In this document: piece by piece, positions 3,715 through 22,200 of the stretch
Layout of the letters: every line of letters begins with the position of its first letter
How positions within the stretch are numbered: the stretch's first letter is position 1
Source of the DNA: an uncultured Alphaproteobacteria bacterium
GTDB lineage: Bacteria > Pseudomonadota > Alphaproteobacteria > CAAGCB01 > CAG-977
DNA length: 64,000 bases
Assembly (NCBI GenBank): GCA_944390195.1
Contig: CALXOZ010000001.1
Coordinates: forward strand, 154,663-218,662
Direction: 5' to 3'
Position numbers and translations under genes: made by a program
The notes under the pieces: generated by a model
The model's database searches: none
What the model was told of the DNA's origin: nothing
The model's input: the letters and a program-made list of their open reading frames with translations, nothing else

Positions 3715-4059
3715 TTGACGTCTTGGGAGATCGAAAAGAACAGCATGCAACACGAACCTTCTTTCTTATCCGCTTTTTTAGGGTTGATTTTCGTCCTAGG
3801 GATTATTTTTCTGATTTCGTTTCTTTTTAAAAAATTCGGTTCTTCTTTTATACCGGGAACGGTTAAAAATAAAAAAAATTCAGAACTAATTTTAATGGAT
3901 TGTAAAACGGTTGATTTGAAAAATCGCTTAATTCTCGTTCGCTGTAAAAATAAAGAATATTTGTTAATCATCGGAGAAAATAATACTTTAATAGATTCTT
4001 TTGACGTAAAGAATGAAAGTTGCTGTGAAAATCAAGAGGTCGTTCATGACAATACTTAA
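3715..4059 (+). CDS. fliO: flagellar biosynthesis protein FliO-like (start may be the internal Met at 3745)
   Basis: Small protein with a single transmembrane segment (FLSAFLGLIFVLGIIFLISFLF), immediately upstream of and overlapping fliP. The LILVRCKNKEYLLIIGENNTLI segment is typical of FliO. Confidence 0.5.
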   Translation: MTSWEIEKNSMQHEPSFLSAFLGLIFVLGIIFLISFLFKKFGSSFIPGTVKNKKNSELILMDCKTVDLKNRLILVRCKNKEYLLIIGENNTLIDSFDVKNESCCENQEVVHDNT

Positions 4060-4783: not shown

Positions 4784-4791
4784 TTGAACTG

Positions 4792-7700
4792 CTAAAACGA
4801 ATAAATCACGGTTGCAGAAATGTTTTGCATGGATGATTTTGATCCGCTTGTATTGCTGAATAACAGGTTCAACTTGATATTTTCGGATATTTGACCGTTT
4901 ATTCCGAAACCGATTGTAAACAAAGAAGTTTCTTCGCTGTCTAAAGAATTGAACATTGTTTGCAATGAATCCGAACTGAAATAGGCTTGGGTCGAAGACG
5001 AACCTCCGGATAAATAGTGATCGTAACGCAAATCCAAGAAGATGTATTCAGGCTTGAACATAAACATTTGGAACGGTGCTGAAACAAAACCGGATATCAA
5101 TCCTGCGGACATCATTATGCCCGTATCGGACGCTTTTTTAACGGAAAGGTTAAGATCTGAATTTCCAGTTTCCTGATAAGCGTCTTGATTGATTTGTGTA
5201 AAGGTCAATCCAGCATAGGGTCTGAACGACCAATCACCGGCGTTCATGGGGATTTGTTGAAAATCGTATCCGACATTGACTGTTGCTTCCAAGCTTGTTC
5301 CATCAAAGGAAGCTTGACTTTCAAAAGTTTTTATGGGCAGTTCAGTTACCCTTTTTTTATCATAGCTTTGGAAGCCGAGCATTAATGCTCCGTTAACAGA
5401 CCAGAAATCTTTTTGACGACTGAAATAGGCCCCCAGACGAAGATCCGTTATGTCCATTGAATCGGAATCCTGTTCTACCGAAGTGGTTGCATAACCTGCC
5501 GTCAACCCCCATAAGAAATCTTTTGAATGAACGAAATCCCATCCGAACATCAATCCGCTTCCAGAGCTTTCAGCATCGCCTCTTTGAGCTTCTTCACCGG
5601 CCTCAAAAGTTCCTTTGCCGTATAAGATTTGTCCCCACACTTCGTTTTGAGCGGCAAATTTATTTCCGCCGGAACGCCCTTGCGGACGATAGCGTTTATA
5701 AACATCCGGCCGCGAAGGGACATAGTAGTGATAATCGTCCTGAGGCGTGTTACCAGGCCGGTAGTTGCGATAAACGTCGGGACGCGAAGGGACGGAATAA
5801 TTGTAATCGTCTTGAGGTGTGTTTCCCGGTCGATAATTACGATAGACATCAACGCCGCCCGCACCGGATTCAGCGCCTGATCCAGATGCGACGGAAGGTT
5901 CTGTCCGAGGAGTGTAATATTCTTTTGTATTTTGATATTGTTGAGGTGTTTTGCCGATCTGGCGTTCAAACAAATGAGTCCGTATCCCCGCGGACAGCTT
6001 GTTTGACAAAGGCAATGAAGCGAAATGTATCGGTTTTACCTGATCATTCATTTTATTAATTTGTTTTTTCAGATCGGCTTCGCTGAAAAAGTAGTATCCT
6101 GAAAAATCGTTATAGTGTTCGTTTTTAAACAAATTATCAATAGTAGCGGCTGTCTGACGTTCACTGTCCGTTAAAGATGGAGAGTTGCCTTTATAGGATA
6201 ATGAAAGGTAATCCAATGAAACGGAAACGGTTTTTGCCGTATCGTCTATGGTTGTGTTTGCCGTAACGAATGGACTAAGATTACTGCTACTTTCAAAATT
6301 TTCCGAGATTGTTATAGAATTTGTCGCTGTTAGAATTGTGTAAGATTGGTCTTGACCGAATTCCGGCAAGTTCGCAACATCTATGGACAGTTTTCCACTG
6401 GCAAGATTCAAATCCGTTACAGTCATTTGCTGCAGTTGGGTCGGGTCGTTGATATCTGGAGATAAAACGATAATACCGTAATTGATTAAGGTGTCCGGTT
6501 GTGATGTCAGGTATAAGTTACCGCCCGGTTGGTTGACCAAGGTACCCCCTTTAACGGTGTTTTGCTGTAATGTTGCACCATTGTAAACCGTTCCGGTGTT
6601 TTCAATGACAGCATTTACGGTACCGGTGTTGATATAAAAATTTGCAGTGTTGATGATTTTATTTGTAATGTTTCCGCCATCGAAATAAAAATCTTGCGCG
6701 TTTGTCAAATCAGAAATCGTCCCTGTTCCGGATAAGTAAAAAATGGAAGAGTTTTCTACCGATCCGACAGAACCGCCGGATAAATTCGTTGTTCCTGCAT
6801 TGATTAAACTTTGGATTGTTCCGGAATCGATTTGAATTGTGCCGTTCGCTTGTGACGATACGGTATTATTAACGGTTCCTCCATTGACATAAAATGTTCC
6901 GGCGGAAACATTGACGGCTCCGGCCAAGGAACCTGTCAATTTCAAAGTACCCTCTTCAACAAGAGTGGTTCCTAAATAAGTGTTCTGTCCGGCAAGAGTT
7001 AAAGTCCCCTTGCCTAATTTTTTTAAACCGACATTAGCTTCCGGATGTGTTGTTGCTGTTGTTGTTGGCGTTGCTTTGCGTTGTGAGATATTATTGCTCC
7101 ATGTGCTGTCATAGTTTTGAACGTCTATTGTGTAAACATATTCGTTGTTAACATAATCGGTCTGTTCCGAAAGCCGGTTAGCATCAAGATATCCGGGACC
7201 TTTGATTGCACTGGCTAAGTCGATAATGCCCTGTCCGAACACATCACTATAGGAAACATCAACGCAATAAACACCGCCTGATGAACAAGAATAGGCACCC
7301 CCCAATTCCGCTTGAACGATAGTGTTTTTTTGTGCATCAGTCCATTCTCTGCCATAGCCATCACTTGTGCCGAAAAATAAAAATTGTGATTTTCCATTAT
7401 CTTTTTGGATCATATAGTCGCTGAAGGCAGCATAATTTTTATTCGCTGTGGAAAAAAGAACATCGGCAAGTTGTTTTCCCCCCATGTACGGAAATGCGCT
7501 GGATACAACGGCGGCGGCGCCTGAAATCATGGGAGCTGCTGCGGAAGTTCCTGAAAAAGAACCATAAGAGGTCGCACTATCGGATGAGGCTGCTGTCAAA
7601 GATCCGACGGGAGCGGTTAATGACCATTCTTGCGCCCCTTGTGCCAAGTTCGTATAACTGGCTAGAAAATACGGGCTGGAAACAGAATAAAAAGGATCAT

Positions 7701-8367
7701 AAGCTATAGCGCTGATGATGTTGTTTTTAAGTGTCGGATCCTGTACCGGCAAGGAGGCGGGAAAAGCGTTGGGAGATAATGATGTTTCGTTACCTGCCGA
7801 AGCAACGATCAATTTGTCTTTGGCAACCAGATATTTTGCCGCGTTGACATAATCTGATATATCCGACGGTACGTTTACTGATCCGAAACTGTTATTGATG
7901 ATTTTTACTGAATCATACATATCGCCGCTTAATGTCTGCCATGCGCGTAAAACAGTATAACATGTCGGACAATCGACTTCATCATCCAAATCTATGGCAA
8001 AGGCTAAAATTTTCGCGTTATAAGCGACACCGTGCATACCCAAACCGTCTTTTTGTCCGGCAATGATGCTTGATACGGGGGTTCCGTGGTCTGCTATGTC
8101 TTGAACATTGAAATCGGTTTGTTGCAAATCACTGAATTGTTCGGAGAACTCTTGATGATCCACCAATGTGGCATTGTCGACAACGGCAACTGTTACTCCT
8201 GATCCGGTGAAACCTGCGGCGTAAGCGGCTGCGGCTCCCAAGGCATCATAAGCCAATCTATTAGCATTATATTCGTCTTCCGATGTTACAGGGGTTTCTG
8301 TCTCTTGTGCCAAAGCGTTTTGAGATAACAGCATTGAAATTAAAAAAAGCAGAGTTCTTTTATTCAT
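4792..8367 (-). CDS. autotransporter with subtilisin-like (S8) serine protease passenger domain
   Basis: Signal peptide MNKRTLLFLISMLLSQNALAQ. S8 motifs present (DHGTPVSSIIAG, GTSAAAPMISGAAAVV). C-terminal beta-barrel translocator ends ...ATVIYSF. Internal 24-aa tandem repeats. Confidence 0.85.
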   Translation of the reverse strand: MNKRTLLFLISMLLSQNALAQETETPVTSEDEYNANRLAYDALGAAAAYAAGFTGSGVTVAVVDNATLVDHQEFSEQFSDLQQTDFNVQDIADHGTPVSSIIAGQKDGLGMHGVAYNAKILAFAIDLDDEVDCPTCYTVLRAWQTLSGDMYDSVKIINNSFGSVNVPSDISDYVNAAKYLVAKDKLIVASAGNETSLSPNAFPASLPVQDPTLKNNIISAIAYDPFYSVSSPYFLASYTNLAQGAQEWSLTAPVGSLTAASSDSATSYGSFSGTSAAAPMISGAAAVVSSAFPYMGGKQLADVLFSTANKNYAAFSDYMIQKDNGKSQFLFFGTSDGYGREWTDAQKNTIVQAELGGAYSCSSGGVYCVDVSYSDVFGQGIIDLASAIKGPGYLDANRLSEQTDYVNNEYVYTIDVQNYDSTWSNNISQRKATPTTTATTHPEANVGLKKLGKGTLTLAGQNTYLGTTLVEEGTLKLTGSLAGAVNVSAGTFYVNGGTVNNTVSSQANGTIQIDSGTIQSLINAGTTNLSGGSVGSVENSSIFYLSGTGTISDLTNAQDFYFDGGNITNKIINTANFYINTGTVNAVIENTGTVYNGATLQQNTVKGGTLVNQPGGNLYLTSQPDTLINYGIIVLSPDINDPTQLQQMTVTDLNLASGKLSIDVANLPEFGQDQSYTILTATNSITISENFESSSNLSPFVTANTTIDDTAKTVSVSLDYLSLSYKGNSPSLTDSERQTAATIDNLFKNEHYNDFSGYYFFSEADLKKQINKMNDQVKPIHFASLPLSNKLSAGIRTHLFERQIGKTPQQYQNTKEYYTPRTEPSVASGSGAESGAGGVDVYRNYRPGNTPQDDYNYSVPSRPDVYRNYRPGNTPQDDYHYYVPSRPDVYKRYRPQGRSGGNKFAAQNEVWGQILYGKGTFEAGEEAQRGDAESSGSGLMFGWDFVHSKDFLWGLTAGYATTSVEQDSDSMDITDLRLGAYFSRQKDFWSVNGALMLGFQSYDKKRVTELPIKTFESQASFDGTSLEATVNVGYDFQQIPMNAGDWSFRPYAGLTFTQINQDAYQETGNSDLNLSVKKASDTGIMMSAGLISGFVSAPFQMFMFKPEYIFLDLRYDHYLSGGSSSTQAYFSSDSLQTMFNSLDSEETSLFTIGFGINGQISENIKLNLLFSNTSGSKSSMQNISATVIYSF
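5685..5860 (-). repeat. about 2.3 copies of a 72-bp in-frame tandem repeat inside the autotransporter gene (encodes PDVYRNYRPGNTPQDDY[N/H]Y[S/Y]VPSR)
   Basis: Near-identical 72-nt units are visible directly in the DNA. The protein shows PDVYRNYRPGNTPQDDYNYSVPSR / PDVYRNYRPGNTPQDDYHYYVPSR / PDVYKRYRP. Confidence 0.8.
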
Positions 8368-8378
8368 ATTTCTTGCCC

Positions 8379-8678
8379 TTATGAAAGGTTAAAAGGGATG
8401 GAACTGGAATATTTGGAAAATATGGATTCCATTTTCGTTGCGAAACCATATTTCATTTCAATATTTGAGATTTTTTGCTTTAAATGTTCGTCTTGATTTT
8501 CAAGGCGGATTTCTTTAATCTTTTCTTTATATACTTTCTTGAACTTCAGTATATTAAGAATGATCATGTCTTTCAACGGATATTTTTTGTCATTTCCGTT
8601 TTTATCGTCTGACCTTTTTACAGAAACATCTGTAAAAACAAAAGACATGGAATATGGTATAAAAAGATGTTTTTCCAT
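8379..8678 (-). CDS. hypothetical small protein
   Basis: 99-aa ORF between the autotransporter and rubrerythrin. Weak RBS. No recognisable motif. Confidence 0.3.
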   Translation of the reverse strand: MEKHLFIPYSMSFVFTDVSVKRSDDKNGNDKKYPLKDMIILNILKFKKVYKEKIKEIRLENQDEHLKQKISNIEMKYGFATKMESIFSKYSSSIPFNLS

Positions 8679-8786
8679 ATATTATCTCAAAGGTTAAAAT
8701 TTTTTTATAGCATAACCTTAAAGAATATATGAATCATTAAAAAAAAGCGGGTATTTTATCCCCGCTTTTAAAATTAACATTTTATT

Positions 8787-9281
8787 TTAATCGATTTTAA
8801 TGAACATTTTTCCGCTTGCCTTGCAAATAGGGCATTGTTCGGGAATGTTTCCGACAATTGTTTCACCGCAAACAGGGCAGACATAAATGTCGGCAGCGAT
8901 ATTGTTACCCAAGTTTTCCAAAGCGTCTTTATAAAGACGGGCATGCGTTTTTTCTACCGTGTTCGCCATGGAAAACGAACGTTCGGCCGTTTTGTTGCCT
9001 GATTTTTGAGCTTCTTCAATCATTGGAGGGTACATACTTTCAAATTCATAAGTTTCCCCGTTAATAGCCTCTTGCAGATTTTCTTTTGTTGTTAGTATCT
9101 TATTAGCAGCGCGTAAATGATTTCCGGCATGGATTTTTTCTGCGCTTGCAGCTGCGCGGAATAATTTTGCAACTTGAGTGTAACCTTCTTTATCGGCTTG
9201 AACAGCAAAAGCGCTGTATTTTTGATAAGCTTGTGATTCTCCTGCAAAAGCAGCCATTAAATTATCCAAAGTATTTGACAT
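8787..9281 (-). CDS. rbr: rubrerythrin
   Basis: True start is MSNTLDNLMAAFAGESQAYQKY (ATG at 9281 with an AGGAAAC RBS). The track ORF is a spurious extension across the tRNA. Ferritin-like di-iron region plus C-terminal rubredoxin-like CPVCG...CPIC. Confidence 0.85.
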   Translation of the reverse strand: MSNTLDNLMAAFAGESQAYQKYSAFAVQADKEGYTQVAKLFRAAASAEKIHAGNHLRAANKILTTKENLQEAINGETYEFESMYPPMIEEAQKSGNKTAERSFSMANTVEKTHARLYKDALENLGNNIAADIYVCPVCGETIVGNIPEQCPICKASGKMFIKID

Positions 9282-9382
9282 GAATAAGTTTCCTTGTTGT
9301 TTAGAATTATTATAAAAAACATTATATGTCTTTTTTTTATTAAAGCAACTAAAAAAACAAAGTAAAAGATCATATAAAAAAC

Positions 9383-9411
9383 TTGATATAATCAAGCAAA
9401 CAGAGTAAATA
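9383..9411 (+). promoter_or_regulatory. sigma70-like promoter for tRNA-Arg (TTGATA-N17-TAAATA)
   Basis: TTGATA at 9383-9388 and TAAATA at 9406-9411, 11 nt before the mature tRNA 5' end. The -35 region also forms an imperfect TTGAT-N3-ATCAA dyad. Confidence 0.35.
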
Positions 9412-9422
9412 CTCTTATAAGT

Positions 9423-9499
9423 GGTCTCGTAGCTCAGCTGGATAGAGCAACAGCCTTCTAAGCTGTGGGTCGAGCGTTCGAATCGCTCCGAGATCACCA
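9423..9499 (+). tRNA. tRNA-Arg (anticodon TCT)
   Basis: Manual cloverleaf fold: acceptor GGTCTCG/CGAGATC, D-stem GCTC/GAGC, anticodon stem ACAGC/GCTGT with loop CTTCTAA, T-stem GAGCG/CGCTC with loop TTCGAAT, discriminator A, encoded CCA. Confidence 0.9.
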
Positions 9500-9505
9500 A
9501 TATCA

Positions 9506-9534
9506 CCCCCTTGGTCTTCAAGGGGGTTTTTTTT
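9506..9534 (+). terminator. rho-independent terminator after tRNA-Arg
   Basis: Hairpin CCCCCttggtcttcaaGGGGG followed by a T8 tract. Confidence 0.7.
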
Positions 9535-10603
9535 AGATCTGTTCTTAAAATCGGTAAAAAAATTTTCTATCACATTTTTGTTCTTTTTAAGAATGGGAAA
9601 ATTTGGGGATAAAGCACCTCTTTTCTCCGGTAAACCGGAATTTTGGAATCAAAAGTGGGCGAATCGTTGAAAATTATCAATTTATCTTGTTTTTTTTATC
9701 TGAAGATTTAAAGGAAAACTTGGAAATCTCATTTGTTCCACACGATAGAATATTATTCTGAAATGAAGAACAAGCTCGCTTTTTTTTGTGAAACAAAAAT
9801 AACTGGATACTTTTTAGGATACAATTATCAGGTAAAGAATAAAAAAATACCAACTGTTTATTTTCCTGAACGGAATCATGTTGTTTAAACTTGGAATGTT
9901 TTTTGCTTTCATATCTTTTTCGTGAAAGGGGTTATAAATCTTCTCTCGCTGTTACACCGAAAATACTGATAGAGAAGATAAAATTTTTGATATTGATGAA
10001 GGTCTTACTGCGGATGATGGAATTTATATCTATAAAAAGTTCATTAATAATAACAGGATTTATTTCCTACCCTCTTTTCAAACATAAAAAAAAGTGCATT
10101 TTTTGTCGGGACGCGTTGTTATCTGTTTTTAAACTGGCTTATTTATATTTTTTACGCTTTATCAGACTTGAATTTTTGTTTTTTAGAAACCGGAATTTTG
10201 ATTTTTGCGTTTGTACATGGGGTTTGACCGGTTTTCACTTTGCTTTTCTTTATGCTGATCGTCACAAAACAAACTCAGAAAACTCTGTTGGATTTTTTCA
10301 AGATTGTGGCGGCATCCGTTCGGAATCAACTTTTATCAAGCCTATATTTTGCGCTATTTTTGTAAATAATTTTATTATTTTTCATTATTCAATTTAAAAA
10401 TACAATGTAAACTGAAGATTAGTTATCTTGTTTCAAGATTTAATCAAAATTTTTTATTGATTGTTAATTCTTTCCGTCAGACAAAAGAAAAGTGGTTTTC
10501 TTTTTTTATGGCTTCCAAAAGATCTTTATGAGGTTTTCTGATATTTTTACATATTTGTAAATTATACATTTAAATGATTATAACAATATTTTTGTTTTTA
10601 ATT

Positions 10604-11596
10604 TCAATTACTTAATACCGCTTTGATTCCTAACGCTATTTCGTAAGCTAAATTTATTGGAACAGCATTGCCAATCATTTTATAAGCATTATCAGTTGCA
10701 TTATAAATAAATTTAAACGTATCTGGAAATCCTTGAATTCGAGCTATTTCTCGTATCGTCATTCTGCGATATAAATGTTCTTTTTCTTTAACAAAACAAT
10801 ATTTGTTTTCCTTAATTTTTATCATTTTCGGTGCTTGAGGGTGTAACTGGCATTGACGTCCAGAAGCCTGGACGGTGTAGGCTTGTTCATCCCATGATTT
10901 TACACGGTTTCTACTCATAAAAATGGGAGAGTATGCACCAGTAAAATATTCATTATTGTTTATAGCTTCAGGATTGTGATGATTGTTTTTTCCCGCCGGG
11001 ACAGCAGTAAACTGTAAATCCCAAATAACATCTCGTAGGGTTTTTTTCTTATAATCGTTTACAGTTGAACCACATGGAAATCTAAAATGGATATTTAAAT
11101 CGTTTCTAAAACCAATATAAAATACTCTTTTCCTTTCTTCTGCAACTCCATAATCTTTTGCATTTACCATTGTTAGCGATACATCATAACCAGCTTCTTT
11201 AAACAGATTTAAAATACTTTGAACGGCTTCTGAATTTCTGTTTGCAAGCATTCCACTGACATTCTCAGCGAGAAAAAAGCGAGGCTGTTTTTCCTTTAAA
11301 ATTCTTATATAATCATAAAAGAGTCGTCCTCTTTCATCATTTATACCGCGTAAAGCTCCTGCTTCTGACCATGATTGGCATGGAGGACCTCCGATAATTC
11401 CATCAATTCCACATGGAAAATCAGAAGCGCCTATCTTTCGAATATCACCCTCAATCAAATGTGTATGTGGATGATTTATTTTGAATGTTTCCCAAATGGT
11501 TTTATCAAACTCATTAGCAACAGGAATTTCAAATCCCGCTTGTTCAAATCCCAAATCTAAACCACCGCAACCACTAAAAAGACTGATAATCTTCAT
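10604..11596 (-). CDS. DNA (cytosine-5)-methyltransferase, M.NgoPII/M.HaeIII-like (GGCC)
   Basis: Near-collinear similarity to M.HaeIII/M.NgoPII as I remember them: [11 protein letters not shown] (motif I), GGPPCQSWS (motif IV PC), [41 protein letters not shown] present. Confidence 0.9.
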
Positions 11597-11615
11597 AAAG
11601 ATCTCCCTATATATA

Positions 11616-12452
11616 TTACTTACTAAATGAAATTAACTTCGCTTCGTTTAGTTGAGCGGGATTGTCAGGGTTTTTAATTCTAATATCTTCAATTTTTAAG
11701 TTTGGTGTTTTTTGCTCTAATTCTAAAAGATCTTGGGTATTATCAAACTGTCTCCATTTGTTATTGTTAATTATGCTCATAAAGTTAAAAGATTTGGATG
11801 TTGTTTTGTAAACATAATCAAAAACTCGCCAAGGATTTTCAATACCCCACATACCTCTAACTCTTAAATAAGTAATCCCTAACGGATCAATGCGATTAAT
11901 ATGTCCAAGCTCTCTTGTCTGAGCAAATTCTATTTCTGGAATCGTTTCAACACCGTTTTTAATGGTTTCTTTTATTTTTTGATAACACTCCTCGGAAGCA
12001 CAATAGTCCATTCCATAAACCATACAGAGCTGCTTTAGTTTATTGTTTTTTACAACACCTACCACATAAATTATATCTTTTTCTGACCAATTTTCAGCTT
12101 CTCGACAAGCTTTTGAAATCATAGGACTTGATGATTTAATTTTACGTTTTGGGTAGCTACTATTTAGAGCAAGAGCTGAACTCTCTTGCTCTATTTTTTT
12201 TACCTCAATCGCATCTCCATTTTTTAGCATCGCATCTGGTGGATTCGCATTATTTCCCAAATAAGAAAAAACATTTGAGATCATTTCAATTCTTTTGTTT
12301 CCCGATTGATCTAAGGTGTTGGCAAAGATATCTTTTACATATTCTTCCAGTGCGTCTCCAGTATTATTAGCACGGTTGTTTCCTAGATTATCATTAAGAA
12401 TTTGTGTTCTTGGATTTTCAATTAAATTTACAATAGCATTTATGATGTTCAT
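11616..12452 (-). CDS. type II restriction endonuclease, probable R.NgoPII-like (GGCC) partner of the methyltransferase
   Basis: 278-aa ORF 19 bp upstream of the methyltransferase on the same strand, in R-then-M order as in NgoPII. The length matches R.NgoPII. RBS AAGGAAA. Identity is by context; the endonuclease sequence itself was not independently recognised. Confidence 0.6.
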
Positions 12453-12951
12453 ATAATATTTCCTTTTTGCACAAGTATAATTAAAAATTTTTTATATTAA
12501 AATAAAAATTTTTTAATTATAATTTGTAGGTATATACTTACCATTTCAAGTGAACTAACGAAAGATGGTATTAAAAAATTAAGTTGTATAAAATTAAAAT
12601 TCTTATAATGTCTTTGTATATCCTTATGTTATGTGAAAATATTTTGAACACATGTTTTTTATATTTATTGAAAAAATACAATTAAAATAAAAAAAATATA
12701 TTTTTATTTATAAATCGGTTTCCGTTTATTGTTTTTCTTTTATTTTCTTTATGATAATGGGGCGTTGGAGCTAACAGGTAAAAGCAATCTATAAGTTCTC
12801 TTACTTAATTGTAAAGGAATTAAAAGGAAGTGCTTTTAATATTCCAAGAGGGTCATTTTTAATGTTTTTTATAAAGATAGTCTGTTTTTTTACTCTTGTG
12901 TTATGAATCATACTTTATTTTAAAATTTTTGAGAATTGGCAGGAAAGTGAT

Positions 12952-13548
12952 ATGTCGGAAAACGATTTTTTAGAAATGGCTCGAAATAATCAAAAAAAAG
13001 CTTTTGATATTATCCGGAAGTTGAAAATTTATGAAAACTGGGAAGTGATCGGGGCAAAAGTGAATCTGATTGGGTCTTTAAAGACAGGGGTGTTGATGAA
13101 GCATTTAGACATTGATTTTCATGTTTATACAACGGATTTAAAAATCGAAGATAGTTTTAAAGCTATAGGCGGTATTGCCTGTAACAAAGGGGTTATGAAA
13201 GTAATTTATATGAATTTGTTGGATCATAAGGATGCTTGTTTGGAATGGCATATGTTTTATCAAGACGACGACGGGCGAGAGTGGCAAATTGATATGATTC
13301 ATATTGTCAAAGGGTCGTATTATGACGGATACTTTGAAAAAGTTGCCGACCGGATAAATCAATGTGCAACAGACGGGCAAAAAGAAAGAATTTTACGATT
13401 AAAATATGAAACACCGGAAACGTTTCAGATCCCCGGTATAGAGTATTGCCAAGCCGTTTTGCAAGAAGATGTAAAATCTTTCAACGAATTGTTGGAGTGG
13501 AGGAAAAACAAACCGATGAAAGATATTATCGAATGGTTGCCCGAATGA
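12952..13548 (+). CDS. Pol-beta-superfamily nucleotidyltransferase-fold protein (ANT/Lnu-like or stand-alone defense nucleotidyltransferase)
   Basis: Canonical nucleotidyltransferase motif hG[GS]-x10-DhD (LIGSLKTGVLMKHLDIDFHVY), as in AadA/ANT(2'')/Lnu enzymes. 198 aa. AGGAAAG RBS. Sits divergently from the R-M operon inside the islet. Confidence 0.6.
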   Translation: MSENDFLEMARNNQKKAFDIIRKLKIYENWEVIGAKVNLIGSLKTGVLMKHLDIDFHVYTTDLKIEDSFKAIGGIACNKGVMKVIYMNLLDHKDACLEWHMFYQDDDGREWQIDMIHIVKGSYYDGYFEKVADRINQCATDGQKERILRLKYETPETFQIPGIEYCQAVLQEDVKSFNELLEWRKNKPMKDIIEWLPE

Positions 13549-14266
13549 TATTTTTTTAACTATTCTTTATTTATAAAGATAATCTATTATATAATTGTTT
13601 ATTGTTTTATTTGTTTTTTTTATTTTATTGTTTTTTTGATAAAAATTTAATATTATTTTATTTTGTTGAAATAATTTTATTTTTTAAAAAAGTTTAAGAT
13701 TTTATATGCTCTTTTTAAGAGATTTATTAAAGTTGTTCTGTTTTTTTATTTCAAATATACATTTAAACGAATTATATTTTTATAAATTTACATTCATTTA
13801 TGTTTAAATTAGATGCATAAAAATGTAAAAATAACCTTCCTCTTTTTTTATATAGCTGAAATTATCTTTCGCGGGTTGAGAGCCGTTTCAAATTTTGAAT
13901 ATGTATGACAAGCTAATCCATTAGTTAATTCTCCTTTTCCTTTCCGAATAATTCTTACGAGTTATTTATTTTCTCGATAAAGATATTTTTTTCTTTTTTA
14001 AACAATTTTTGAAACAGATCCGTTGTGAATTTTTATTCGTGAGTATAAATTACATTCAGATAAAAATAAAAAAATCCCTTTCCATTTTGATTTAGTTAAA
14101 ACAATATTTAAAACAATATTTACTTCTTCGTTTGTTTCAGGATTGGTTTACTCAAGTAATCCCTTCTTTTTCTACTTTCATTTGTTCCTTGAGAGGATCT
14201 CTATTATAGCATAAATACTGCTGTTTCTAAAAAAATGTATTAACAGTCAAAACACGCCATAAATAT

Positions 14267-14296
14267 TAAAAAGCCCTCGTTTGAGGGCTTTTTTCT
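14267..14296 (-). terminator. rho-independent (bidirectional) terminator downstream of htpG
   Basis: AAAAAGCCCTCgtttGAGGGCTTTTTT hairpin flanked by A- and T-tracts. Confidence 0.6.
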
Positions 14297-14310
14297 GGTT
14301 TTCGAGCTTT

Positions 14311-16170
14311 TTATTCGACGGCCGACATCATGAAATCCGTTACACGTTGAGAAAAAGCGGCAGGATCTTTAATCGGTTCGCCTTCAATGATTTTTGCTTG
14401 ATCGAATAAAACCTGTACCAAAGCTTTGTTTGTATCGCTTGTATCTCCGGCGGCGACCTTTGCAGCCAGTTTTTTGATCAATGGATGACGCGGATTGATA
14501 TCAAAGTAACGGTTGCTTACATACAAAGACGGTTGATTGTGTTGACGCATCAAGCGTTCAAGGTGGATCGAAGCTTCTCCATCTCCTGTTGACAGAGCAA
14601 CCGGGCTTTTAGTTAAACGCTCTGTCGTTCTGACTTCTTTGACTTCATCGCCGACGATTTCCTTGATGAATTTTTTCAAAGCATCCAAATCCGCTTGAGG
14701 CGCTTTTTCTATTTTATCTGATTGATCCGTAATTAATAGAGTTTCCAATTCTTGAGCTCCGGCATTAACGGATTTAATCGGTTTTTCCTTATATTGCGTC
14801 AATCCTTGAGGCCAAAATTCATCAATCGGGTCTGTTAACAACAGGACTTCAATCCCACGGGAGGCAAAGCCTTCCAGTTGAGGATTGTTGCGTAATACGG
14901 CCAAGTCGTCCCCTGTAATATAGTAAATGCTTTTTTGTCCGTCTTTCATACGGGAAATATAATCGGCCAAAGTTGTCAACTCTTCTGAATTTGTAGAATA
15001 AAAACGGCAAAGTTCGGCGATTTCCTCCCGATTGTAAGAGTCTTCAAAGATCCCTTCTTTTAAAACGGCACCAAAAGCGTCCCAAAATACCGAATATTCT
15101 TTTTCATTCTCACTTCTTTTTTTCAATTCGCCCAGAATACGGCGGACGACACCCGTTTTAATCTTTGATAAGACAGGAGTTTTTTGTAACATTTCACGTG
15201 AAACGTTCAAGGGGAGTTCTTTTGTATCGATGACCCCTTGAATGAAACGAAGGTAATTCGGCAACATATCCGGTACTTGATCCGTAATGAAAACTCTGTT
15301 GATGTATAATTTGATTTGTGCATTACGGTTGGGCTGGAAAATGTCATAGGGGGTCTTTGTCGGAATGAACATCAATGCCGTATATTCTATCGTCCCTTCC
15401 GCCTTGTAGTGTAAAATATCCCACGGATCGTCAAAAGCATGAGAGATGTGACGGTAAAAATCTTTATATTGCGCTTCAGTGATCTCGGCTTTGTTCCTTG
15501 TCCATAAAGCGCTGGCCAAGTTGATCGTTTCCGTTTCCCCCATGTAATGCATGATGACCGGGAAGGAAATATGATCTGAAAATTGGCGTACGATCCGCCG
15601 GACTTCAGCCGCTTCGGCATAATGATAGGCGTCCGGTTTCAAGTAAAGGGTTATTTTTGTTCCGCGGGTAACATCTTGTTCTTCGGTGATCGTAAAAGAT
15701 CCTTTTCCAGTCGATGTCCATAACCAGCCTTCTTCTTCTCCGGCCTTGCGGGAACGGACTTCAACCTTTTCCGCAACCATGAAAGCGGAATAAAAACCGA
15801 CGCCGAATTGACCGATTATCGTTGCGTCCTTTTGTTTGTCACCGGTCAGGTTGTTTAAAAACTCAGCCGACCCCGAACGCCCGATTGATCCCAAGTCTTT
15901 TATCAGGTCTTGTTTGTTCATGCCGATGCCGTTGTCGTCTATCGTCAAAGTGTGGGCATCTTTGTCCGGATAAATGTTTATTTTAAATTCTCCGTCCCCT
16001 TTTGCAATATCCGGTTTCATAATTGCTGCGTAACGTAACTTGTCACAAGCGTCCGAAGCGTTTGAAATCAATTCTCTTAAAAAGATGTCCGTATCCGAAT
16101 AAAGAGCGTTGACAACTATATCTAAAATTTTGCCGACTTCAGCTTGAAATTGCATTTTTTCTTCCGACAT
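14311..16170 (-). CDS. htpG: molecular chaperone HtpG (Hsp90)
   Basis: MSEEKMQFQAEVGKILDIVVNALYSDTDIFLRELISNASDACDKLRY is the classic Hsp90 N-terminal ATPase signature. Full-length, 619 aa. Confidence 0.95.
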   Translation of the reverse strand: MSEEKMQFQAEVGKILDIVVNALYSDTDIFLRELISNASDACDKLRYAAIMKPDIAKGDGEFKINIYPDKDAHTLTIDDNGIGMNKQDLIKDLGSIGRSGSAEFLNNLTGDKQKDATIIGQFGVGFYSAFMVAEKVEVRSRKAGEEEGWLWTSTGKGSFTITEEQDVTRGTKITLYLKPDAYHYAEAAEVRRIVRQFSDHISFPVIMHYMGETETINLASALWTRNKAEITEAQYKDFYRHISHAFDDPWDILHYKAEGTIEYTALMFIPTKTPYDIFQPNRNAQIKLYINRVFITDQVPDMLPNYLRFIQGVIDTKELPLNVSREMLQKTPVLSKIKTGVVRRILGELKKRSENEKEYSVFWDAFGAVLKEGIFEDSYNREEIAELCRFYSTNSEELTTLADYISRMKDGQKSIYYITGDDLAVLRNNPQLEGFASRGIEVLLLTDPIDEFWPQGLTQYKEKPIKSVNAGAQELETLLITDQSDKIEKAPQADLDALKKFIKEIVGDEVKEVRTTERLTKSPVALSTGDGEASIHLERLMRQHNQPSLYVSNRYFDINPRHPLIKKLAAKVAAGDTSDTNKALVQVLFDQAKIIEGEPIKDPAAFSQRVTDFMMSAVE

Positions 16171-16250
16171 TATAACCTCCCAATAATAATTGTTTTTTTA
16201 ATTAGGTGTTTGTTTTTTAAATTTCAACCCTGTCATGAAAGTTTTCTGTT

Positions 16251-18776
16251 ATGGAATGCAACCTGAGCGCTTTACTTGGACCGACAAATACAGGAAAGAC
16301 ATATCTTGCCGTTGAAAAGATGCTGACATGCAAATCGGGCATGATCGGTTTTCCTTTGCGATTGTTGGCTCGTGAAAATTACGACCGGATTGTGCGTCAA
16401 AAAGGTTTTGATGCTGTCGCTTTGATTACGGGTGAAGAAAAAATCATGCCTGAAAACCCGTCTTATTTCGTTTGTACTGTCGAGGCTATGCCACTTGAAA
16501 GACCTGTCGATTTTTTAGCCGTTGATGAAATTCAAATGGCTGCGGACGTTGAACGGGGGCATATTTTTACAGATCGTTTGCTTTCTGCGCGAGGGGTTCG
16601 CGAAACAATGTTTTTAGGAGCGGAAACAATCAAACCGTTGTTAAAAAAATTGATCCCTCAGATACAAATTGAAACAAGACCGCGTTTTTCAAAATTGACA
16701 TACACGGGAATAAAAAAAATAACGCGTTTGCCGCCGCGTTGTGCGATTATCGGTTTTTCCATTCAAGACGTTTATGCTTTGGCGGAATTGATCAGACGTC
16801 AAAAAGGCGGGGCGGCTGTTGTCATGGGAGCCTTAAGCCCTCGTACACGCAACGCTCAAGTCGATATGTTTCAATCCGGTGAGGTCGATTATTTGATCGC
16901 AACCGATGCTATCGGCATGGGGTTGAATATGGATGTCGATCATGTTTGTTTTACGGCGTTACGAAAGTTCGACGGTCAAAAAATGCGTTTTTTGTCGGCG
17001 GCGGAGTTGGCTCAAATTGCGGGACGGGCTGGACGGTATATGAAAAACGGCACGTTCGGGTCTGCCGCAGAGGCTTCCGCCTTGCCTCAGGATGTGATCG
17101 ACCGAATCGAAGAACACCGCTTTGAATCGCTTTCGCATTTGTTTTGGCGTAATTCCGACTTGAAAATGACTTCGTTGGAAGCCTTGATTTACAGCTTGAA
17201 TGTCAAGCCTTCAATGCCGGGGTTGGTTTCCGCCAGAAAAGCGGAAGATCATCAAGTCTTGGAAGTTTTAATGAAAAATGAATCGATCCTGCGTTCGGCA
17301 ACTCACCCTTCCCGCATAAAATTGTTGTGGGATGTTTGTCAGATACCCGATTTCGGAAAAGTAAGCCCTCAAGCTCATGCCCGATTGCTGGCTCAAGTAT
17401 ACAATCATATCCTGAACAAAGGGAAATTGCCTCAAGATTGGTTTGAAAAGCAAATAAAAATAATAGACAATGTCAACGGTGATATTGATGTTATTACAGG
17501 ACGTATTGCAGGAATTAGAATTTGGACGTATATTGCTCAAAGAAAAGAATGGATCGACCGGTCGGCATACTGGCGAGACATGACAAGGGCTGTTGAAGAC
17601 AGGTTGTCTGATGCTTTGCATCAAAAACTGATTCGGCGGTTTGTGGATAAGAGAACATCTGTTTTGGTTAAGGGTATGAAAACACAAGTGGAATTATTTA
17701 CAAAAATAGAAGAGGACGGTTCTGTGGAAGTCGAAGGACAATCTGTCGGAAAAATTCAGGGATTGCGTTTTATTCCGATTACGGGAGCCGGAAAGTTTGC
17801 TGATCACGTTTTGATTTCTGCGGCTGAAAAAGCATTGCAAACAGAATTCCAAAACAGAATTTCTGCAATTCTTGATGCTCCTGATACAGATTTCGCATTG
17901 GAAAACGATGCGCAAATCACTTGGAAAGGACAAGGAATCGCCAAGATTCTCAAAGGTCGCGATATCCTGCATCCCGTTGTCAGCCTTAATGTCCATGAAA
18001 CAATAGAACAAACATCCATCGATCAAATGAAAACCAAATTGAACGGATGGTTGGAAGTCTGTCTGGCAAATAAAATCACGCCTTTGTTTACAGCATTGCG
18101 GATGTTGAGTGAAGAAAATTCTTCCGGATCCGCTCGCGGCATCCTTTGGCAGGTCGTTGAATGTTTGGGGACTATGCCCCGCGAAAAAGTCGCCGATTTG
18201 ATCAAAGGATTGAATGAAGCCGATAAAAAAGTTTTGGCTAAAGCGGGAATGCGTCTGGGACACGATTATTTGTTCTTTCCGATGCTGTTGAAGCCTGCTG
18301 CTCAAAGAATATGCGCCATTTTGTGGAAAGTCTGGTTCGAAAAAACCAAGTATGCAAACGGTTTCGCCATTGATGGAAAAATGTCGTTTGTTGCTGAACG
18401 AGGAGTTCCGCGTGCTTTATATCTTGTTCAAGGATATGCTTTGGCTGGGACGTGTGCGATCAGAGTTGATGTCATGGAACGCTTTACAGCAAGGTTGCGT
18501 GAAATTACAAGACAAGATAAAGGAAAACCCCAACTCTTTCCTTTGGAGTTGCTTTCCATTGCCGGTCTGAAAAGGGACGAAGCGGAAGACGTCTTCGGTT
18601 TTCTGGGGTTTAAGGTTATTAAAGAAAAACAAACCGTAACCGTCGGTGAAGAAACAAAAGAAACTGAAGTTTTAATGATTCAGCCTAAATTTAAAAAGCG
18701 TAAAACAGAGACGAAAACGGAAACCGTCGATATGGATTCTCCTTTTGCGGCTTTGGCTTCTTTGAAAAAGAAATGA
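16251..18776 (+). CDS. Suv3-like ATP-dependent (RNA) helicase
   Basis: Walker A GPTNTGKTY, DEIQ box and SAT-like motifs present. 841 aa. The same helicase/Hsp15 pairing is seen in many alphaproteobacteria. Confidence 0.75.
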   Translation: MECNLSALLGPTNTGKTYLAVEKMLTCKSGMIGFPLRLLARENYDRIVRQKGFDAVALITGEEKIMPENPSYFVCTVEAMPLERPVDFLAVDEIQMAADVERGHIFTDRLLSARGVRETMFLGAETIKPLLKKLIPQIQIETRPRFSKLTYTGIKKITRLPPRCAIIGFSIQDVYALAELIRRQKGGAAVVMGALSPRTRNAQVDMFQSGEVDYLIATDAIGMGLNMDVDHVCFTALRKFDGQKMRFLSAAELAQIAGRAGRYMKNGTFGSAAEASALPQDVIDRIEEHRFESLSHLFWRNSDLKMTSLEALIYSLNVKPSMPGLVSARKAEDHQVLEVLMKNESILRSATHPSRIKLLWDVCQIPDFGKVSPQAHARLLAQVYNHILNKGKLPQDWFEKQIKIIDNVNGDIDVITGRIAGIRIWTYIAQRKEWIDRSAYWRDMTRAVEDRLSDALHQKLIRRFVDKRTSVLVKGMKTQVELFTKIEEDGSVEVEGQSVGKIQGLRFIPITGAGKFADHVLISAAEKALQTEFQNRISAILDAPDTDFALENDAQITWKGQGIAKILKGRDILHPVVSLNVHETIEQTSIDQMKTKLNGWLEVCLANKITPLFTALRMLSEENSSGSARGILWQVVECLGTMPREKVADLIKGLNEADKKVLAKAGMRLGHDYLFFPMLLKPAAQRICAILWKVWFEKTKYANGFAIDGKMSFVAERGVPRALYLVQGYALAGTCAIRVDVMERFTARLREITRQDKGKPQLFPLELLSIAGLKRDEAEDVFGFLGFKVIKEKQTVTVGEETKETEVLMIQPKFKKRKTETKTETVDMDSPFAALASLKKK

Positions 18777-19147
18777 GTGATTCTCAAAGAATCGATAAGT
18801 GGCTTTATTTTACGCGATTTGCCAAAACGCGTTCGGTTGCGCAACAAATGATCGAAGGCGGGCATGTCGCTGTTAACGATGAAAAGGTTTTAAAGTCGAG
18901 TCGCGAAGTTAAAAACGGAGATCGTTTAACGATTTTACGCGGCTCGGTTCGTTTTTTTGTTCAAGTTTCAGGCTTTTGTGAAAAAAGAGTTGGGGCTGCC
19001 ATTGCAAAGACCTTATATGAACAAATCAAAGAACCTGAAAATTTGATGCCGCCTGTTAAAAGGGTTTTTGAATTTCGTGAGGCGGGAACGGGGCGTCCGA
19101 CAAAGCGTGACCGACGCGCAATCAATCGTTTAAAGGGAAGGTTTTAA
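18773..19147 (+). CDS. hslR: S4-domain RNA-binding heat-shock protein Hsp15-like
   Basis: RIDKWLYFTRFAKTRSVAQQMIEGGHVAVNDEKV matches the S4 fold. 4-nt overlap with the helicase gene. Confidence 0.75.
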   Translation: MSDSQRIDKWLYFTRFAKTRSVAQQMIEGGHVAVNDEKVLKSSREVKNGDRLTILRGSVRFFVQVSGFCEKRVGAAIAKTLYEQIKEPENLMPPVKRVFEFREAGTGRPTKRDRRAINRLKGRF

Positions 19148-19223
19148 TTCGCTTTTTTCTTATCAAAGATGATATCTCTTTTAGAAAATTTGAAAAAAGG
19201 GAGCCTCCCCTTCCCTTTCACGG

Positions 19224-22200
19224 TTAAAAAGACAATGTTAAATCCGCACTCAATTGAGAATATTTTTCCTGTTCGATAAAATGTGAAAATTCAATTGAAA
19301 ATTTTGTTTTATCCGTTTTGTACGCAAGACTGAAATTAATCTCTGAACGGTACTTTTGCTTTTCATCATATAAATCGAAAGTTCCGTTCATGCCGTTCAT
19401 ACCGACTTTTAAAGAATACGGAGATGCAAATTCCCGATAGATCATGCTGGAAAAGTTCAAGTACAACATGTCATTGTCTTCCGTCTTTTTTTGGTAGCCG
19501 ATATTCAAACCCAAACCGCTTTCAACGGACAGAAAGCTGTTACGAGGAATTGTCAAGCTGTAGGCTTTTTCGTCTTCTTTTCCGGATTGATCATACAAAA
19601 TGGCATTTGCTTGGACGCTCGGTTCTATATTTATCCCTTTAAAGTCAAAAGAATATCTGACTTCGTTCTGAAAAGAATAAGAATTTCTTTCAATAAAACC
19701 GTAATAAGAACCGAATTGCCCACTTTGGCGTTTGTAATATTCTTTGGCATAACCGTATTGAATTGAAGAAACGGTTTTTAAACGGTTTTTTTGAAAACTG
19801 ACGGGAAACATAAAACTGACGGATGTGTGTTGTTTTGAACTTTCTTTGTTTGTCGTTTCATAATTGTCGGCAGCCATACCGTAACCGATGTTGATCGACG
19901 GGGAAACATTGATTCCTATCAGTGAAAAGGCTTTTTCGTTTGAAATTTTAGAATTTGCAGCCTCCGATACGTTTGAAAAGCTCCAAACAGGATCCTCTTT
20001 TGTGGCAAAATGAGCGGACATCTGCTGATTAAGCGCAAAATTCAATTTACGCATGGCGGACATATCATGTCGGGTGAAATCTTTAAAAACACTTGTTCCG
20101 GTCAAGCCGTCAAGCGAATCGGAAAAAGCGCTGACAGAATCAATTGACTTTAATATGCTGAAAAAAGATTCATTGTTTTGCAAGGTATAATTCCGTGTCA
20201 GAAAATCTGCAAGAGATCGGCTTGAAACCAAACTGTCGAAAGGTCTCATTGTTAATACGACATCTTTATTATTTTCCGATAAACCGGCATTGAACAAAAC
20301 CGATTTTGATGAAAGTTTTAATTTTGACACATCAGGTGAATCTATTGCGTCTTGGACGGTATAAGATGTTTGAAAACCGTTTTGAACGAAATTTTCAGAA
20401 ATGTTTAAATTTCCGGAAATGTTGTTTGTCGCTTGAAAAACACCGCCTTGTTCTAACGTAACGTTACCGCCGTAAGAATCCAGATTAATACTGTCTGCGC
20501 TGAAAATTCCACTGTTGAGCAAAGTGGCACCATTAAGTTTTATTTCTTCTCCGTTTTCGTTTCCGGATAAGGTTATTACTCCTGTATTATGAACCGTTGC
20601 TCCGACTTCCGCGTAAATGCCGTAAGCTGTTCCGCCAGTTTCCGAATCCGGTGTTATGATATTTCCGTTATTATTGACAGCGGTACGAATGATTTTTATC
20701 GTTCCTTCATTGAAAACCGTTGTTCCTACTGGGGCATACATACCGATAGCTGTTCCCGAAGATAAATTATTAATGATAATTTCTCCGCTATTGATGGCAT
20801 AGTTTCCGGTCGCGTACATACCGACGGATGTTCCAGTTCCCAAGTTTTCCAAAAGGATTGTTGAATTTTCAGGGTTTTGATTGTTTTTTCCATACATACC
20901 GATAGCTGTTCCTGAAACGTTGTCCAAAACAACCCGTCCATGGTTGAAAAGATTTTCTCCGATCAATCCGATGACGGTTCCGGAAGAAAGGTTGTACATG
21001 GCAAGAGAACCTGAAAAATTGGAAACATTTGTCTCGTTTAGTTTTATGCCAACAGCTGTTCCATTTCCTTCATTGGTAATCGTAATCTTGTCTTGAGCTT
21101 CATAAATCATGTCTTTCGCATAGATTCCGTACGCCGTTCCCGTTCCTTGGTTCTTTATGAGGATATCACTTGTTCCGCTCGGGCTTCCGACAGAAGAGTT
21201 TAATGCGTATATCCCATAAACCGTTCCTTCGCTTTCATTATCAATCTCAATGATTCCCGAAGCGTTTGTTCCACTGGAGTTATAAACTGAACCGTTATCT
21301 GTACGCATACCGTAAGCGTTTCCAGAGGAAACATTCCTTATGTAAATTTTCCCTAAAGCCGTTCCATAGCTGCCGGCTGATATTGCATTGTACAGACTTG
21401 CGTATTCGGAATAGATGCCAAAAGCATTGCCGGTACCATTATTTACAATGGAAATGAATCCCTGACTGCTTTTTTCTTTATCATCTGAAAAATATGAACC
21501 TCCGGAAGCGTTGTGTACAGATGAAGATGTTCCGGAATGACTGGAATATAATCCATACGCATCTCCGGAACGGTTATTTTCTATATGGATTGTTCCTTTT
21601 CCGTTATAATAGTTATTGGTTGTGTATTCTATTTCCGAATAAATGCCGAAAACGGAGGACGAAGAGTTTTGTGTCAGTGTAATGTTTCCTATGCCGTCGT
21701 AAGAATTCCCTCCTATATTGAAAGGACTTCCGGAATCAAGATAAATTCCGTAAAAAAAAGAATACGCGTCGTTTGTTTTAACGATGTTTTCGTTATAATA
21801 TCCTGATGGAACCGAAGAATCTTGATTGCTACCGCTTTCGCTATTGCTGCCAATGGCGATTCCCGCAGCAATGATCAATCCGCCAGTAACCAGTTCTGTT
21901 TTTGTCAATCCGAAAAATGTACTTTCTGATGCGGATGTTCTCATAGACCAAGTTGCCACGTCCGATTTATTTAAAACGGCATTCTGGTTAGCTTTCGGTA
22001 TTTGCTTAAAACAAGCGGCGGATTCATTTGCTCCCGCTTTTCTTAAAGTCTGATAGGCTTCTGCGTTGTTTTCCATTGTGGCGCGACATAACGCGGTTAT
22101 TCCGTTCTTATCGGTAACATCAATATTTGAAACATAAAACAAACGATCTTGATTTCCTGTTTTTGCCAAATCGTAAATTTCTTGTTGTGACATGGCAAGA

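Follow-up and report, generated by a model that had tools for sequence, protein, structure and literature searches.

The locus examined here raises the question of what a small nucleotidyltransferase gene is doing beside a restriction-modification (R-M) system, and whether the two belong together. The gene lies at positions 12,952 to 13,548 of a 64,000-nucleotide stretch (the window) of contig CALXOZ010000001.1, from an uncultured alphaproteobacterium (assembly GCA_944390195.1). A first-pass annotation made from the DNA letters had offered two readings, a cryptic antibiotic-modifying enzyme or a defence effector. The analysis favours, with moderate confidence, a stand-alone, catalytically competent small-molecule O-nucleotidyltransferase of the xenobiotic- or antibiotic-modifying type, which is resident and independent of the R-M system. 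The first of the two earlier readings thereby gains support, from acetyltransferase fusions and adjacency in related proteins, while the second is left unsupported.

Predicted Structure and Active Site

The gene and the parts of its product are as follows.

12952..13548 (stop codon included), plus strand: nucleotidyltransferase coding sequence, 198 aa (list of open reading frames, homologues, AlphaFold model)
12952..13311, plus strand: N-terminal helix and Pol-beta-type palm, residues 1-120 (AlphaFold secondary structure, Foldseek)
13072..13116, plus strand: catalytic motif G41-S42-x10-D53-I-D55, predicted to bind nucleoside triphosphate (NTP) and metal (invariant in the 36-sequence alignment)
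13291..13293, plus strand: D114, probable third metal-binding carboxylate (h-D-h), on strand 110-119 of the model
13312..13545, plus strand: C-terminal four-helix domain, residues 121-198, presumed acceptor- and NTP-binding lobe (model, conservation)

The open reading frame (ORF), which starts with ATG, is that of a real gene, with at least 1349 homologue clusters at 90% identity and a conserved length of ~194 aa; in an alignment of 36 homologues, 32 columns are invariant. The AlphaFold model computed with these 36 homologues (pLDDT 90.6, pTM 0.85) begins with a long N-terminal helix, continues with a palm of five strands and ends in a C-terminal lobe of four helices. The N-terminal helix and palm comprise helices 3-31, 41-45 and 65-76 and strands 36-40, 53-60, 81-89, 96-104 and 110-119, and the lobe comprises helices 127-138, 141-153, 162-172 and 177-186, including the invariant residues E129 and K151 and a terminal W195-x-P197 motif. 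A Foldseek search of the PDB with this model matched 63 chains at E<=1e-3 with probability 1.0, and the best 50 of these 63 all have the Pol-beta fold. Terminal uridylyl- and adenylyl-transferases (MEAT1, Cid1, TUT7, PAP and GLD-2) rank first, followed by pol mu and TdT (E ~1e-5, probability 1.0, TMq ~0.5, rmsd ~6 Å, identity 10-15%). LinA (4E8J) and LinB (3JZ0) are not among the best 50 matches, and a search of a viral structure library matched nothing meaningful.

Among the 36 aligned members, weak Pfam matches are found to MTPAP-like_central (36/36, in each case the top hit), NTP_transf_2 (35/36) and Polbeta (31/36). The window protein itself scores below the gathering cutoffs of all three, with 16.5 bits against 27, 14.9 against 21 and 14.3 against 26.9, respectively. 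Structure prediction and a hidden Markov model (HMM) search had both been suggested by the first-pass annotation; the former yields a Pol-beta nucleotidyltransferase fold, and the latter recovers the NTP_transf_2 palm as a sub-threshold match and leaves the ANT families and DUF4269 unmatched.

The peptide that the first-pass annotation had quoted, LIGSLKTGVLMKHLDIDFHVY, is present in the protein, and its G41-S42, followed by ten residues and D53-I-D55, fits the signature hG[GS]-x10-DhD, so that the 198-aa ORF and its motif are as described there. The residues I40-G41-S42 are invariant in the 36 sequences and are located at the junction of strand 36-40 and helix 41-45, whereas D53-I-D55-F, likewise invariant, lies on strand 53-60 and provides the [DE]h[DE]h feature. 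The motif and the carboxylate triad of the Pol-beta superfamily have been defined previously (PMC4125220). The residues D53, D55 and D114 fit this triad, with D114 as the candidate third carboxylate on the evidence of alignment and model: I113-D114-M115 on strand 110-119 is conserved family-wide, and D114 is nearly invariant in the 36 sequences and is kept in a distant subfamily, in which E98 varies. Comparison with distant members shows that the residues conserved throughout the family are G41-S42, D53, D55, D114, K151 and the C-terminal W195-x-P197; in contrast, H51, H57, E98, H100 and H117 are specific to the subfamily of the window protein. By its motif and predicted fold, the protein is a Pol-beta-superfamily nucleotidyltransferase, and since the proposed triad and the family-wide residues are intact it is probably catalytically active. 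Residues 118-198 contain neither a histidine nor an Rx4-6H motif, in agreement with the earlier observation that no HEPN-like motif is visible in the C-terminus.

Acetyltransferase Fusions

In this family, fusion to acetyltransferases of the GNAT type and to chloramphenicol acetyltransferases (CAT) of the CatA type recurs, as does close adjacency to genes for such enzymes. In an unbiased profile search, GNAT fusions make up seven of the ten longest family members, with the nucleotidyltransferase motifs intact in all of them; the catalytic motif is likewise kept in the distant members and in every fusion. The GNAT domain is N-terminal in six of the seven and C-terminal in one (P0137), and the fused domains belong to varied subfamilies (Acetyltransf_1, 3, 7, 9 and 10). 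A search seeded with one fusion gave 36 further full-length GNAT fusions among the 120 proteins listed, some of which come from contigs 75-180 kb long and from NCBI assemblies. When ten further extended members were checked, the only additions were a truncated GNAT fusion and a probable LacI chimera. Combinations of the family with DUF805, PF20095 and PF13630 were also seen, each as a single case.

In the P0356 cluster (201 sequences of 421-424 aa) the nucleotidyltransferase module is joined to a CAT domain. The fusion ORF is continuous, with one terminal stop, both in Candidatus Phocaeicola gallinarum (locus L028:5995-7257) and on a metagenome contig (L099). Its CAT part keeps the catalytic motif HAVADGYH, scores 237-238 bits against the CatA equivalog model (cutoff 270) and matches the solved CAT I and CAT III structures with an E-value of 1e-46. 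NCBI annotates this fusion as a 228-aa chloramphenicol acetyltransferase only, beginning at the Met of the terminal W-M-P, and the N-terminal 193-aa nucleotidyltransferase module is apparently left unannotated.

Adjacency accompanies fusion at several loci. The L107 locus has an unfused, full-length CAT gene (E 4e-26 to CAT I) 13 bp upstream of a gene for a GNAT-nucleotidyltransferase fusion, whose 3' end is overlapped by an S-adenosylmethionine-dependent methyltransferase gene, and in L100 and L104 extra GNAT genes abut or overlap the fusion genes. Beside the fusion gene of L104 there is also a minus-strand array (L104:1-4920) of four paralogous, uncharacterised proteins of 141-146 aa, along with a further 193-aa protein of the Polbeta/NTP_transf_2 kind, a DUF3574 protein and a weak Imm32 match, a cluster that may be of the polymorphic-toxin or immunity type.

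The recurrent GNAT and CatA-type fusions and adjacency, together with the acidic character of the family, support its reading as small-molecule-modifying. Characteristic of resistance enzymes are natural bifunctional proteins in which two drug-modifying enzymes are joined (PMC6017855, PMC3675766), and this precedent, which includes ANT(3'')-Ii-AAC(6')-IId as a natural nucleotidyltransferase-GNAT fusion (PMC6017855), lends further support to a small-molecule O-nucleotidyltransferase. The fused GNATs give generic, sub-threshold NCBIfam and PDB matches alone and match no characterised acetyltransferase family; consequently, no substrate is identified from them.

Comparison with Known Nucleotidyltransferases

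The enzymes AadA/ANT(3''), ANT(2'')-Ia and Lnu(A) share with the window protein the motif hG[GS]-x(9-13)-DhD, including the histidine two residues before the first aspartate. They are also small, two-lobed proteins consisting of a palm and a helical lobe, but differ from the window protein in the C-terminal domain. For comparison, probes were used that are 99.4-100% identical to annotated plasmid lnu(A), ant(2'')-Ia and aadA. AadA aligns with the family over residues 35-58 at 46% identity, and in an hhalign comparison with the family profile it covers 24 columns with a probability of 6.4%, against 0.7% for ANT(2'')-Ia and 0.5% for Lnu(A). Beyond this 24-residue catalytic motif hhalign detects no homology to AadA, which bears out the earlier remark that the proteins are dissimilar outside the motif, and it detects essentially none to ANT(2'')-Ia and Lnu(A). 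The window protein has no NCBIfam hit at E<=1, the resistance models included, and the Pfam search (E<=1 for the window protein, E<=0.1 for the 36 members), which covered the ANT families and DUF4269, gives the generic palm only. Membership of the ANT/Lnu families was therefore rejected: no curated HMM matches, the alignment is limited to the motif and the likeness is at superfamily level. The link to the aminoglycoside and lincosamide nucleotidyltransferases that had been drawn from the signature is reduced accordingly to a motif common to the superfamily.

Over the whole length, the best fold matches are the poly(A) and poly(U) polymerases Cid1, TUT7, MEAT1 and GLD-2, which likewise consist of a palm and a helical lobe. 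Unlike these enzymes, the window protein is of about half their size, lacks the PAP-associated domain, is bacterial and acidic, and belongs to a family fused to acetyltransferases instead of RNA-binding domains.

The MNT (MntA) antitoxins of the HEPN-MNT type VII toxin-antitoxin systems are also small, stand-alone Pol-beta nucleotidyltransferases with a GS...DxD motif, of a type that the first-pass annotation had considered, and MntA is reported to AMPylate its HEPN partner (PMC7641770, PMC11586414). The window protein differs from MntA in having no HEPN neighbour, no Rx4-6H motif and no PADLOC hit, and in its extra conserved four-helix lobe. A further parallel is offered by JHP933 of the Helicobacter pylori plasticity zone, an orphan Pol-beta-fold nucleotidyltransferase that similarly stands beside variable DNA and that was proposed from its structure as a possible drug-modifying enzyme (PMC4125220). 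JHP933 belongs to another family, as PDB sequence searches with the window protein and with its profile gave spurious matches alone and no nucleotidyltransferase, and it is strain-specific, whereas the window gene is resident and widely conserved.

Relation to the R-M Cassette

The features on the 5' side of the gene are as follows.

9423..9499, plus strand: tRNA-Arg(TCT), conserved upstream anchor (ARAGORN and Rfam)
10314..12700, minus strand: NgoPII-like type II R-M cassette, strain-specific and not part of the nucleotidyltransferase unit (indel relative to six related contigs)
10604-11596, minus strand: C5 cytosine methyltransferase, M (PF00145, E 6e-99)
11616-12452, minus strand: NgoPII-family restriction endonuclease, R, of the GGCC-type endonuclease family (PF09521, E 8e-108; PADLOC REase_II, E 3e-125)
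12701..12951, plus strand: presumed promoter region of the nucleotidyltransferase gene (upstream stretch common to strains without the R-M genes)
12941..12947, plus strand: putative ribosome-binding site AGGAAAG, purine-rich, 4 nt 5' of the ATG

Since the R and M genes lie on the minus strand and the nucleotidyltransferase gene on the plus strand, transcription is divergent, as the first-pass annotation had noted. Proteins 99% identical to the window protein are encoded on 8 other contigs, six of which were retrieved for a comparison of collinearity (L001-L006). Window positions 3001-10313 and 12701-22000 match these six loci at ~97-99% identity (~98-99% from 12701 onward). In the six contigs ~152 unrelated bp replace the 2387 bp of window positions 10314-12700, which contain the whole R-M operon, and the nucleotidyltransferase gene is present at the same site while the R-M genes are absent; the two are not co-inherited. 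The R-M cassette is a strain-specific insertion between tRNA-Arg(TCT) and the gene, with its borders at 10313/10314 and 12700/12701. As it ends 251 bp 5' of the start codon, the gene and its upstream region form part of the shared backbone. The GC content at third codon positions points the same way: it is 0.389 for the nucleotidyltransferase gene, a host-like value when compared with the window mean (0.381, sd 0.056, 41 ORFs), in contrast to the outlying values of 0.218 and 0.245 for the R-M genes. The gene is functionally independent of the neighbouring R-M system, and its earlier placement inside a horizontally acquired islet, riding with that system, has to be abandoned.

The cassette shows 66% DNA identity to the NgoPII locus of N. 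gonorrhoeae. Terminal repeats of the kind that mark a transposable unit are missing from its borders, where only AT-rich low-complexity matches were seen, and no integrase is present. Across the alphaproteobacterial clade tRNA-Arg(TCT) is found upstream of the orthologue, at a distance of 48 bp in L014, 335 bp in L101 and ~1.2 kb in L001. In the sister species represented by L013, in which the tRNA was not detected, the corresponding interval is filled by an island with integrase, HTH_17, Toprim_3 and DUF3987 genes (L013:1-5675) that is absent from the otherwise collinear L014. The interval between tRNA-Arg and the nucleotidyltransferase gene looks like a tRNA-proximal insertion hotspot across species, and the adjacency of the R-M and nucleotidyltransferase genes is explained by its uptake of foreign DNA. 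This origin is a caution against guilt by association in a single genome.

A partner hidden in the adjacent gene-free DNA, as had been suggested for a defence module, was not found: an Rfam E-value search of the flanks matched tRNA-Arg alone, no ORF of >=50 aa is present, and the ORFs of >=25 aa are short, AT-rich and of low complexity. The gene-free stretches on either side of the gene (12453-12951 and 13549-14310) are unusually long and very AT-rich (19-26% GC).

Family and Gene Neighbourhoods

The gene is a resident chromosomal member of a large, unnamed family of ~195-aa proteins of gut bacteria. The family has at least 417 hits among GTDB species-representative genomes, and a profile search of 1.84 billion proteins gave 735 family representatives at 50% identity. 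Its hosts are mainly gut bacteria, namely Bacteroides, Phocaeicola (including P. vulgatus ATCC 8482), Alistipes, Parabacteroides, Odoribacter and metagenome-assembled genomes of gut Alphaproteobacteria, and further include enterohepatic Helicobacter and some Lentisphaeria and Planctomycetia. The closest relatives of the window protein come from the metagenome-assembled gut Alphaproteobacteria (59-64% identity), and in a rough neighbour-joining tree it lies within a coherent gut-alphaproteobacterial clade; members from Bacteroidales, Alphaproteobacteria and Helicobacter are 50-55% identical to each other. The family was found in 2 of 72,556 plasmid records, both of them large non-mobilizable Bacteroidales replicons, compared with 124 records for lnu(A), 478 for ant(2'')-Ia and more than 5000 for aadA, and was absent from 50,697 phage records. 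It is acidic throughout, with a median isoelectric point of 5.25 and a net charge of ~-8, the distant members and the modules inside fusions included.

No assignment above threshold was obtained in Pfam, NCBIfam, PADLOC or PHROGs, and a literature search with the terms tried found no paper on the family. Public names are inconsistent and comprise 'phosphoglycerate mutase family protein', 'hypothetical protein' and 'nucleotidyltransferase domain-containing protein'. The first of these is given by NCBI to members from Helicobacter, Bacteroidales and Planctomycetia (P0026, P0083, P0346). A phosphoglycerate mutase identity was rejected in view of the Pol-beta fold and the lack of a His_Phos_1 Pfam hit (E<=1 for the window protein, E<=0.1 for the 36 members); the name is probably a propagated mis-annotation, and is without support whatever the function of the family.

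Clustering of the neighbours at 74 reference-genome loci of single-domain members revealed no neighbour cluster common to several phyla. Recurrent neighbours are confined to Bacteroidales, where a divergent UvrD-type helicase gene, with generic GajB-level similarity only, and a convergent gene for a PAS-GerE regulator flank the family member, an arrangement that looks like vertical synteny. Other neighbours are ClpB/RbfA in Dysgonomonas, RodA-PBP2-MreDCB or a C39 ABC exporter with an HlyD-type protein in sister alphaproteobacteria, and HtpG in the window. Of the 73 immediate-neighbour clusters a handful match defence models (two UvrD-type helicases, two GmrSD_C, and one type I and one type II methyltransferase), and the rest are housekeeping genes such as SprA, RodA, SufBD, ribosomal protein S9 and ClpB. 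Neither a recurrent small neighbour nor an adjacent or fused HEPN domain is found in the window or at the 74 loci, the fusion partners being GNAT or CAT. In its local context the gene is an ordinary resident, but the large unannotated family of which it is part shows fusions in a pattern that is unusual and can be tested.

Possible Function and Alternative Explanations

The preferred function, a small-molecule O-nucleotidyltransferase, would operate as follows. The palm aspartates D53 and D55 would, together with D114, bind Mg2+ or Mn2+ and the NTP, while the triphosphate would be held by the GS loop together with the helical-lobe residue K151. An acceptor hydroxyl, seated where the palm and the C-terminal four-helix lobe form a cleft, would attack the alpha-phosphate, so that pyrophosphate is released and the nucleoside monophosphate is moved to the hydroxyl of a small-molecule acceptor. 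That the acceptor is a small molecule we infer chiefly from the fusions; that it is a xenobiotic such as an antibiotic appears most likely by analogy with the resistance enzymes, although this is more speculative. Hydroxyl-bearing ribosome-targeting drugs would be the first candidates, and the enzyme may act as a cryptic intrinsic modifying enzyme, not as a mobile resistance gene. A wider proposal, put forward tentatively and with less than even confidence, is that the family constitutes a previously unrecognised class of xenobiotic or antibiotic O-nucleotidyltransferases, widespread in the gut microbiota and invisible to resistance databases, in which some members are welded to CatA-type or GNAT acetyltransferases as bifunctional drug-modifying enzymes. 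If the family does modify drugs or xenobiotics, it would represent a new enzyme class of the gut resistome, one that hundreds of widespread commensal species carry on their chromosomes and that none of the curated resistance models tested picks up. The nucleotidyltransferase-CAT and GNAT-nucleotidyltransferase fusion genes, which public annotation at present truncates or labels as acetyltransferase-only, would be accounted for as well.

Several observations weigh against a drug-modifying function. No curated ANT, Lnu or other resistance model is matched, and only the 24-residue motif is common with AadA. The near-absence from plasmids (2/72,556) sets the family apart from lnu(A), ant(2'')-Ia and aadA. 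In structure, the model comes closest to RNA terminal nucleotidyltransferases and not to drug-modifying enzymes, albeit with a TM value of only ~0.5. The window protein itself is unfused, and few of the 74 single-domain loci have an unfused acetyltransferase as a neighbour. What unites GNAT and CAT could be acetyl-CoA and not a drug-like acceptor common to both, and the Bacteroidales synteny fits a housekeeping role with an endogenous substrate equally well. Finally, Helicobacter forms an exception to the housekeeping surroundings: a GmrSD/Orf5/HEC-06-like type IV restriction gene (E 4e-186) often stands directly 5' of the family member on the same strand (L036:3892-5976, L082:500-2197, L093 and L068), with gaps of 13-15 bp in L036 and L082, and HNH and methylase genes follow the family member in H. 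typhlonius. The two adjacent Helicobacter genes form a possible lineage-specific operon.

Known Pol-beta-fold enzymes act on CoA derivatives or on proteins, as illustrated by MdcG/CitX, GlnE and MntA. An enzyme of this kind, which would modify an endogenous metabolite, a CoA-related compound or a protein (for example by AMPylation of acetyltransferases) in a housekeeping role, would account for the chromosomal location, the Bacteroidales synteny between the helicase and regulator genes and the presence in at least 417 species genomes with hardly any plasmid copies, and the use of acetyl-CoA is a property common to the two unrelated partner folds. The patchy, gut-biased distribution across phyla at 50-55% identity looks instead like niche-driven exchange, the CAT partner most resembles genuine CatA resistance enzymes, and no conserved metabolic operon context was seen at the 74 loci, so that this explanation is regarded as rather unlikely. 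Less probable still is an RNA 3'-end nucleotidyltransferase, a miniature bacterial relative of the poly(A) and poly(U) polymerases that would tail or repair RNA or tRNA. The Foldseek matches that span both lobes of these enzymes and the consistent first rank of the MTPAP-like palm in Pfam would suit such an activity, but the structural agreement is limited (TM ~0.5, rmsd ~6 Å) and no PAP-associated domain is matched. Moreover, an acidic protein from an acidic family is poorly suited to RNA binding, and the partners are small-molecule acetyltransferases, including a CatA-type CAT, and not RNA-binding or RNA-processing domains.

A role in defence, whether as a minimal-nucleotidyltransferase-type effector of an abortive-infection module with the R-M system or as a single-gene anti-phage factor that lost its partner, is considered highly improbable. 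It is suggested by the divergent R-M operon of the window and by the Helicobacter loci described above; this possible lineage-specific association with defence islands is the main residual argument for defence. With that exception, the conserved linkage to defence genes in other genomes that such a role would lead one to expect is largely lacking across the 74 loci, where no neighbour recurs across phyla and few neighbour clusters match defence models. The gene persists without the R-M cassette in the six near-identical contigs, PADLOC returns 0 families at E<=1 for the window protein, and the HEPN motif, partner ORF and partner RNA are all missing from the protein or its flanks. In addition, the family is absent from phages and nearly so from plasmids, the composition of the gene is host-like, and the fusion partners are acetyltransferases in place of nucleases, HEPN or effector domains. 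More specific readings of this kind were each rejected for the lack of a defining feature: the HEPN partner, a PADLOC match or co-inheritance, for the MNT/HEPN, CBASS-type (CD-NTase), AbiE and R-M-component readings.

Other Features of the Region

Promoter-like hexamers in the flanks of the gene are not more frequent than expected by chance, and for this reason no specific promoter is claimed. The single good terminator hairpin near the gene, at 14268-14293, belongs to the convergent htpG. At the left junction of the R-M insertion, a 168-aa ORF with a TTG start (9891-10397) runs across the border, where related strains call a 116-aa gene (L002 and L003, 9280-9630); perhaps a small hypothetical gene was modified by the insertion, or else the ORFs at this junction are spurious products of AT-rich DNA.

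In sister species (L101:7678-11132, also L019) genes for a C39-peptidase ABC exporter and an HlyD/AprE-type membrane-fusion protein, which make up a bacteriocin-type export system, lie 87 bp downstream of the orthologue and on its strand. The region of the window is flanked by large genes for subtilisin-type (Peptidase_S8) autotransporters and a second, 1023-aa repeat-rich protein of the outer-membrane type (4792-8367 and 19224-22295), and the S8 autotransporter gene occurs as a tandem duplicate in a sister species (L101:1-6200).

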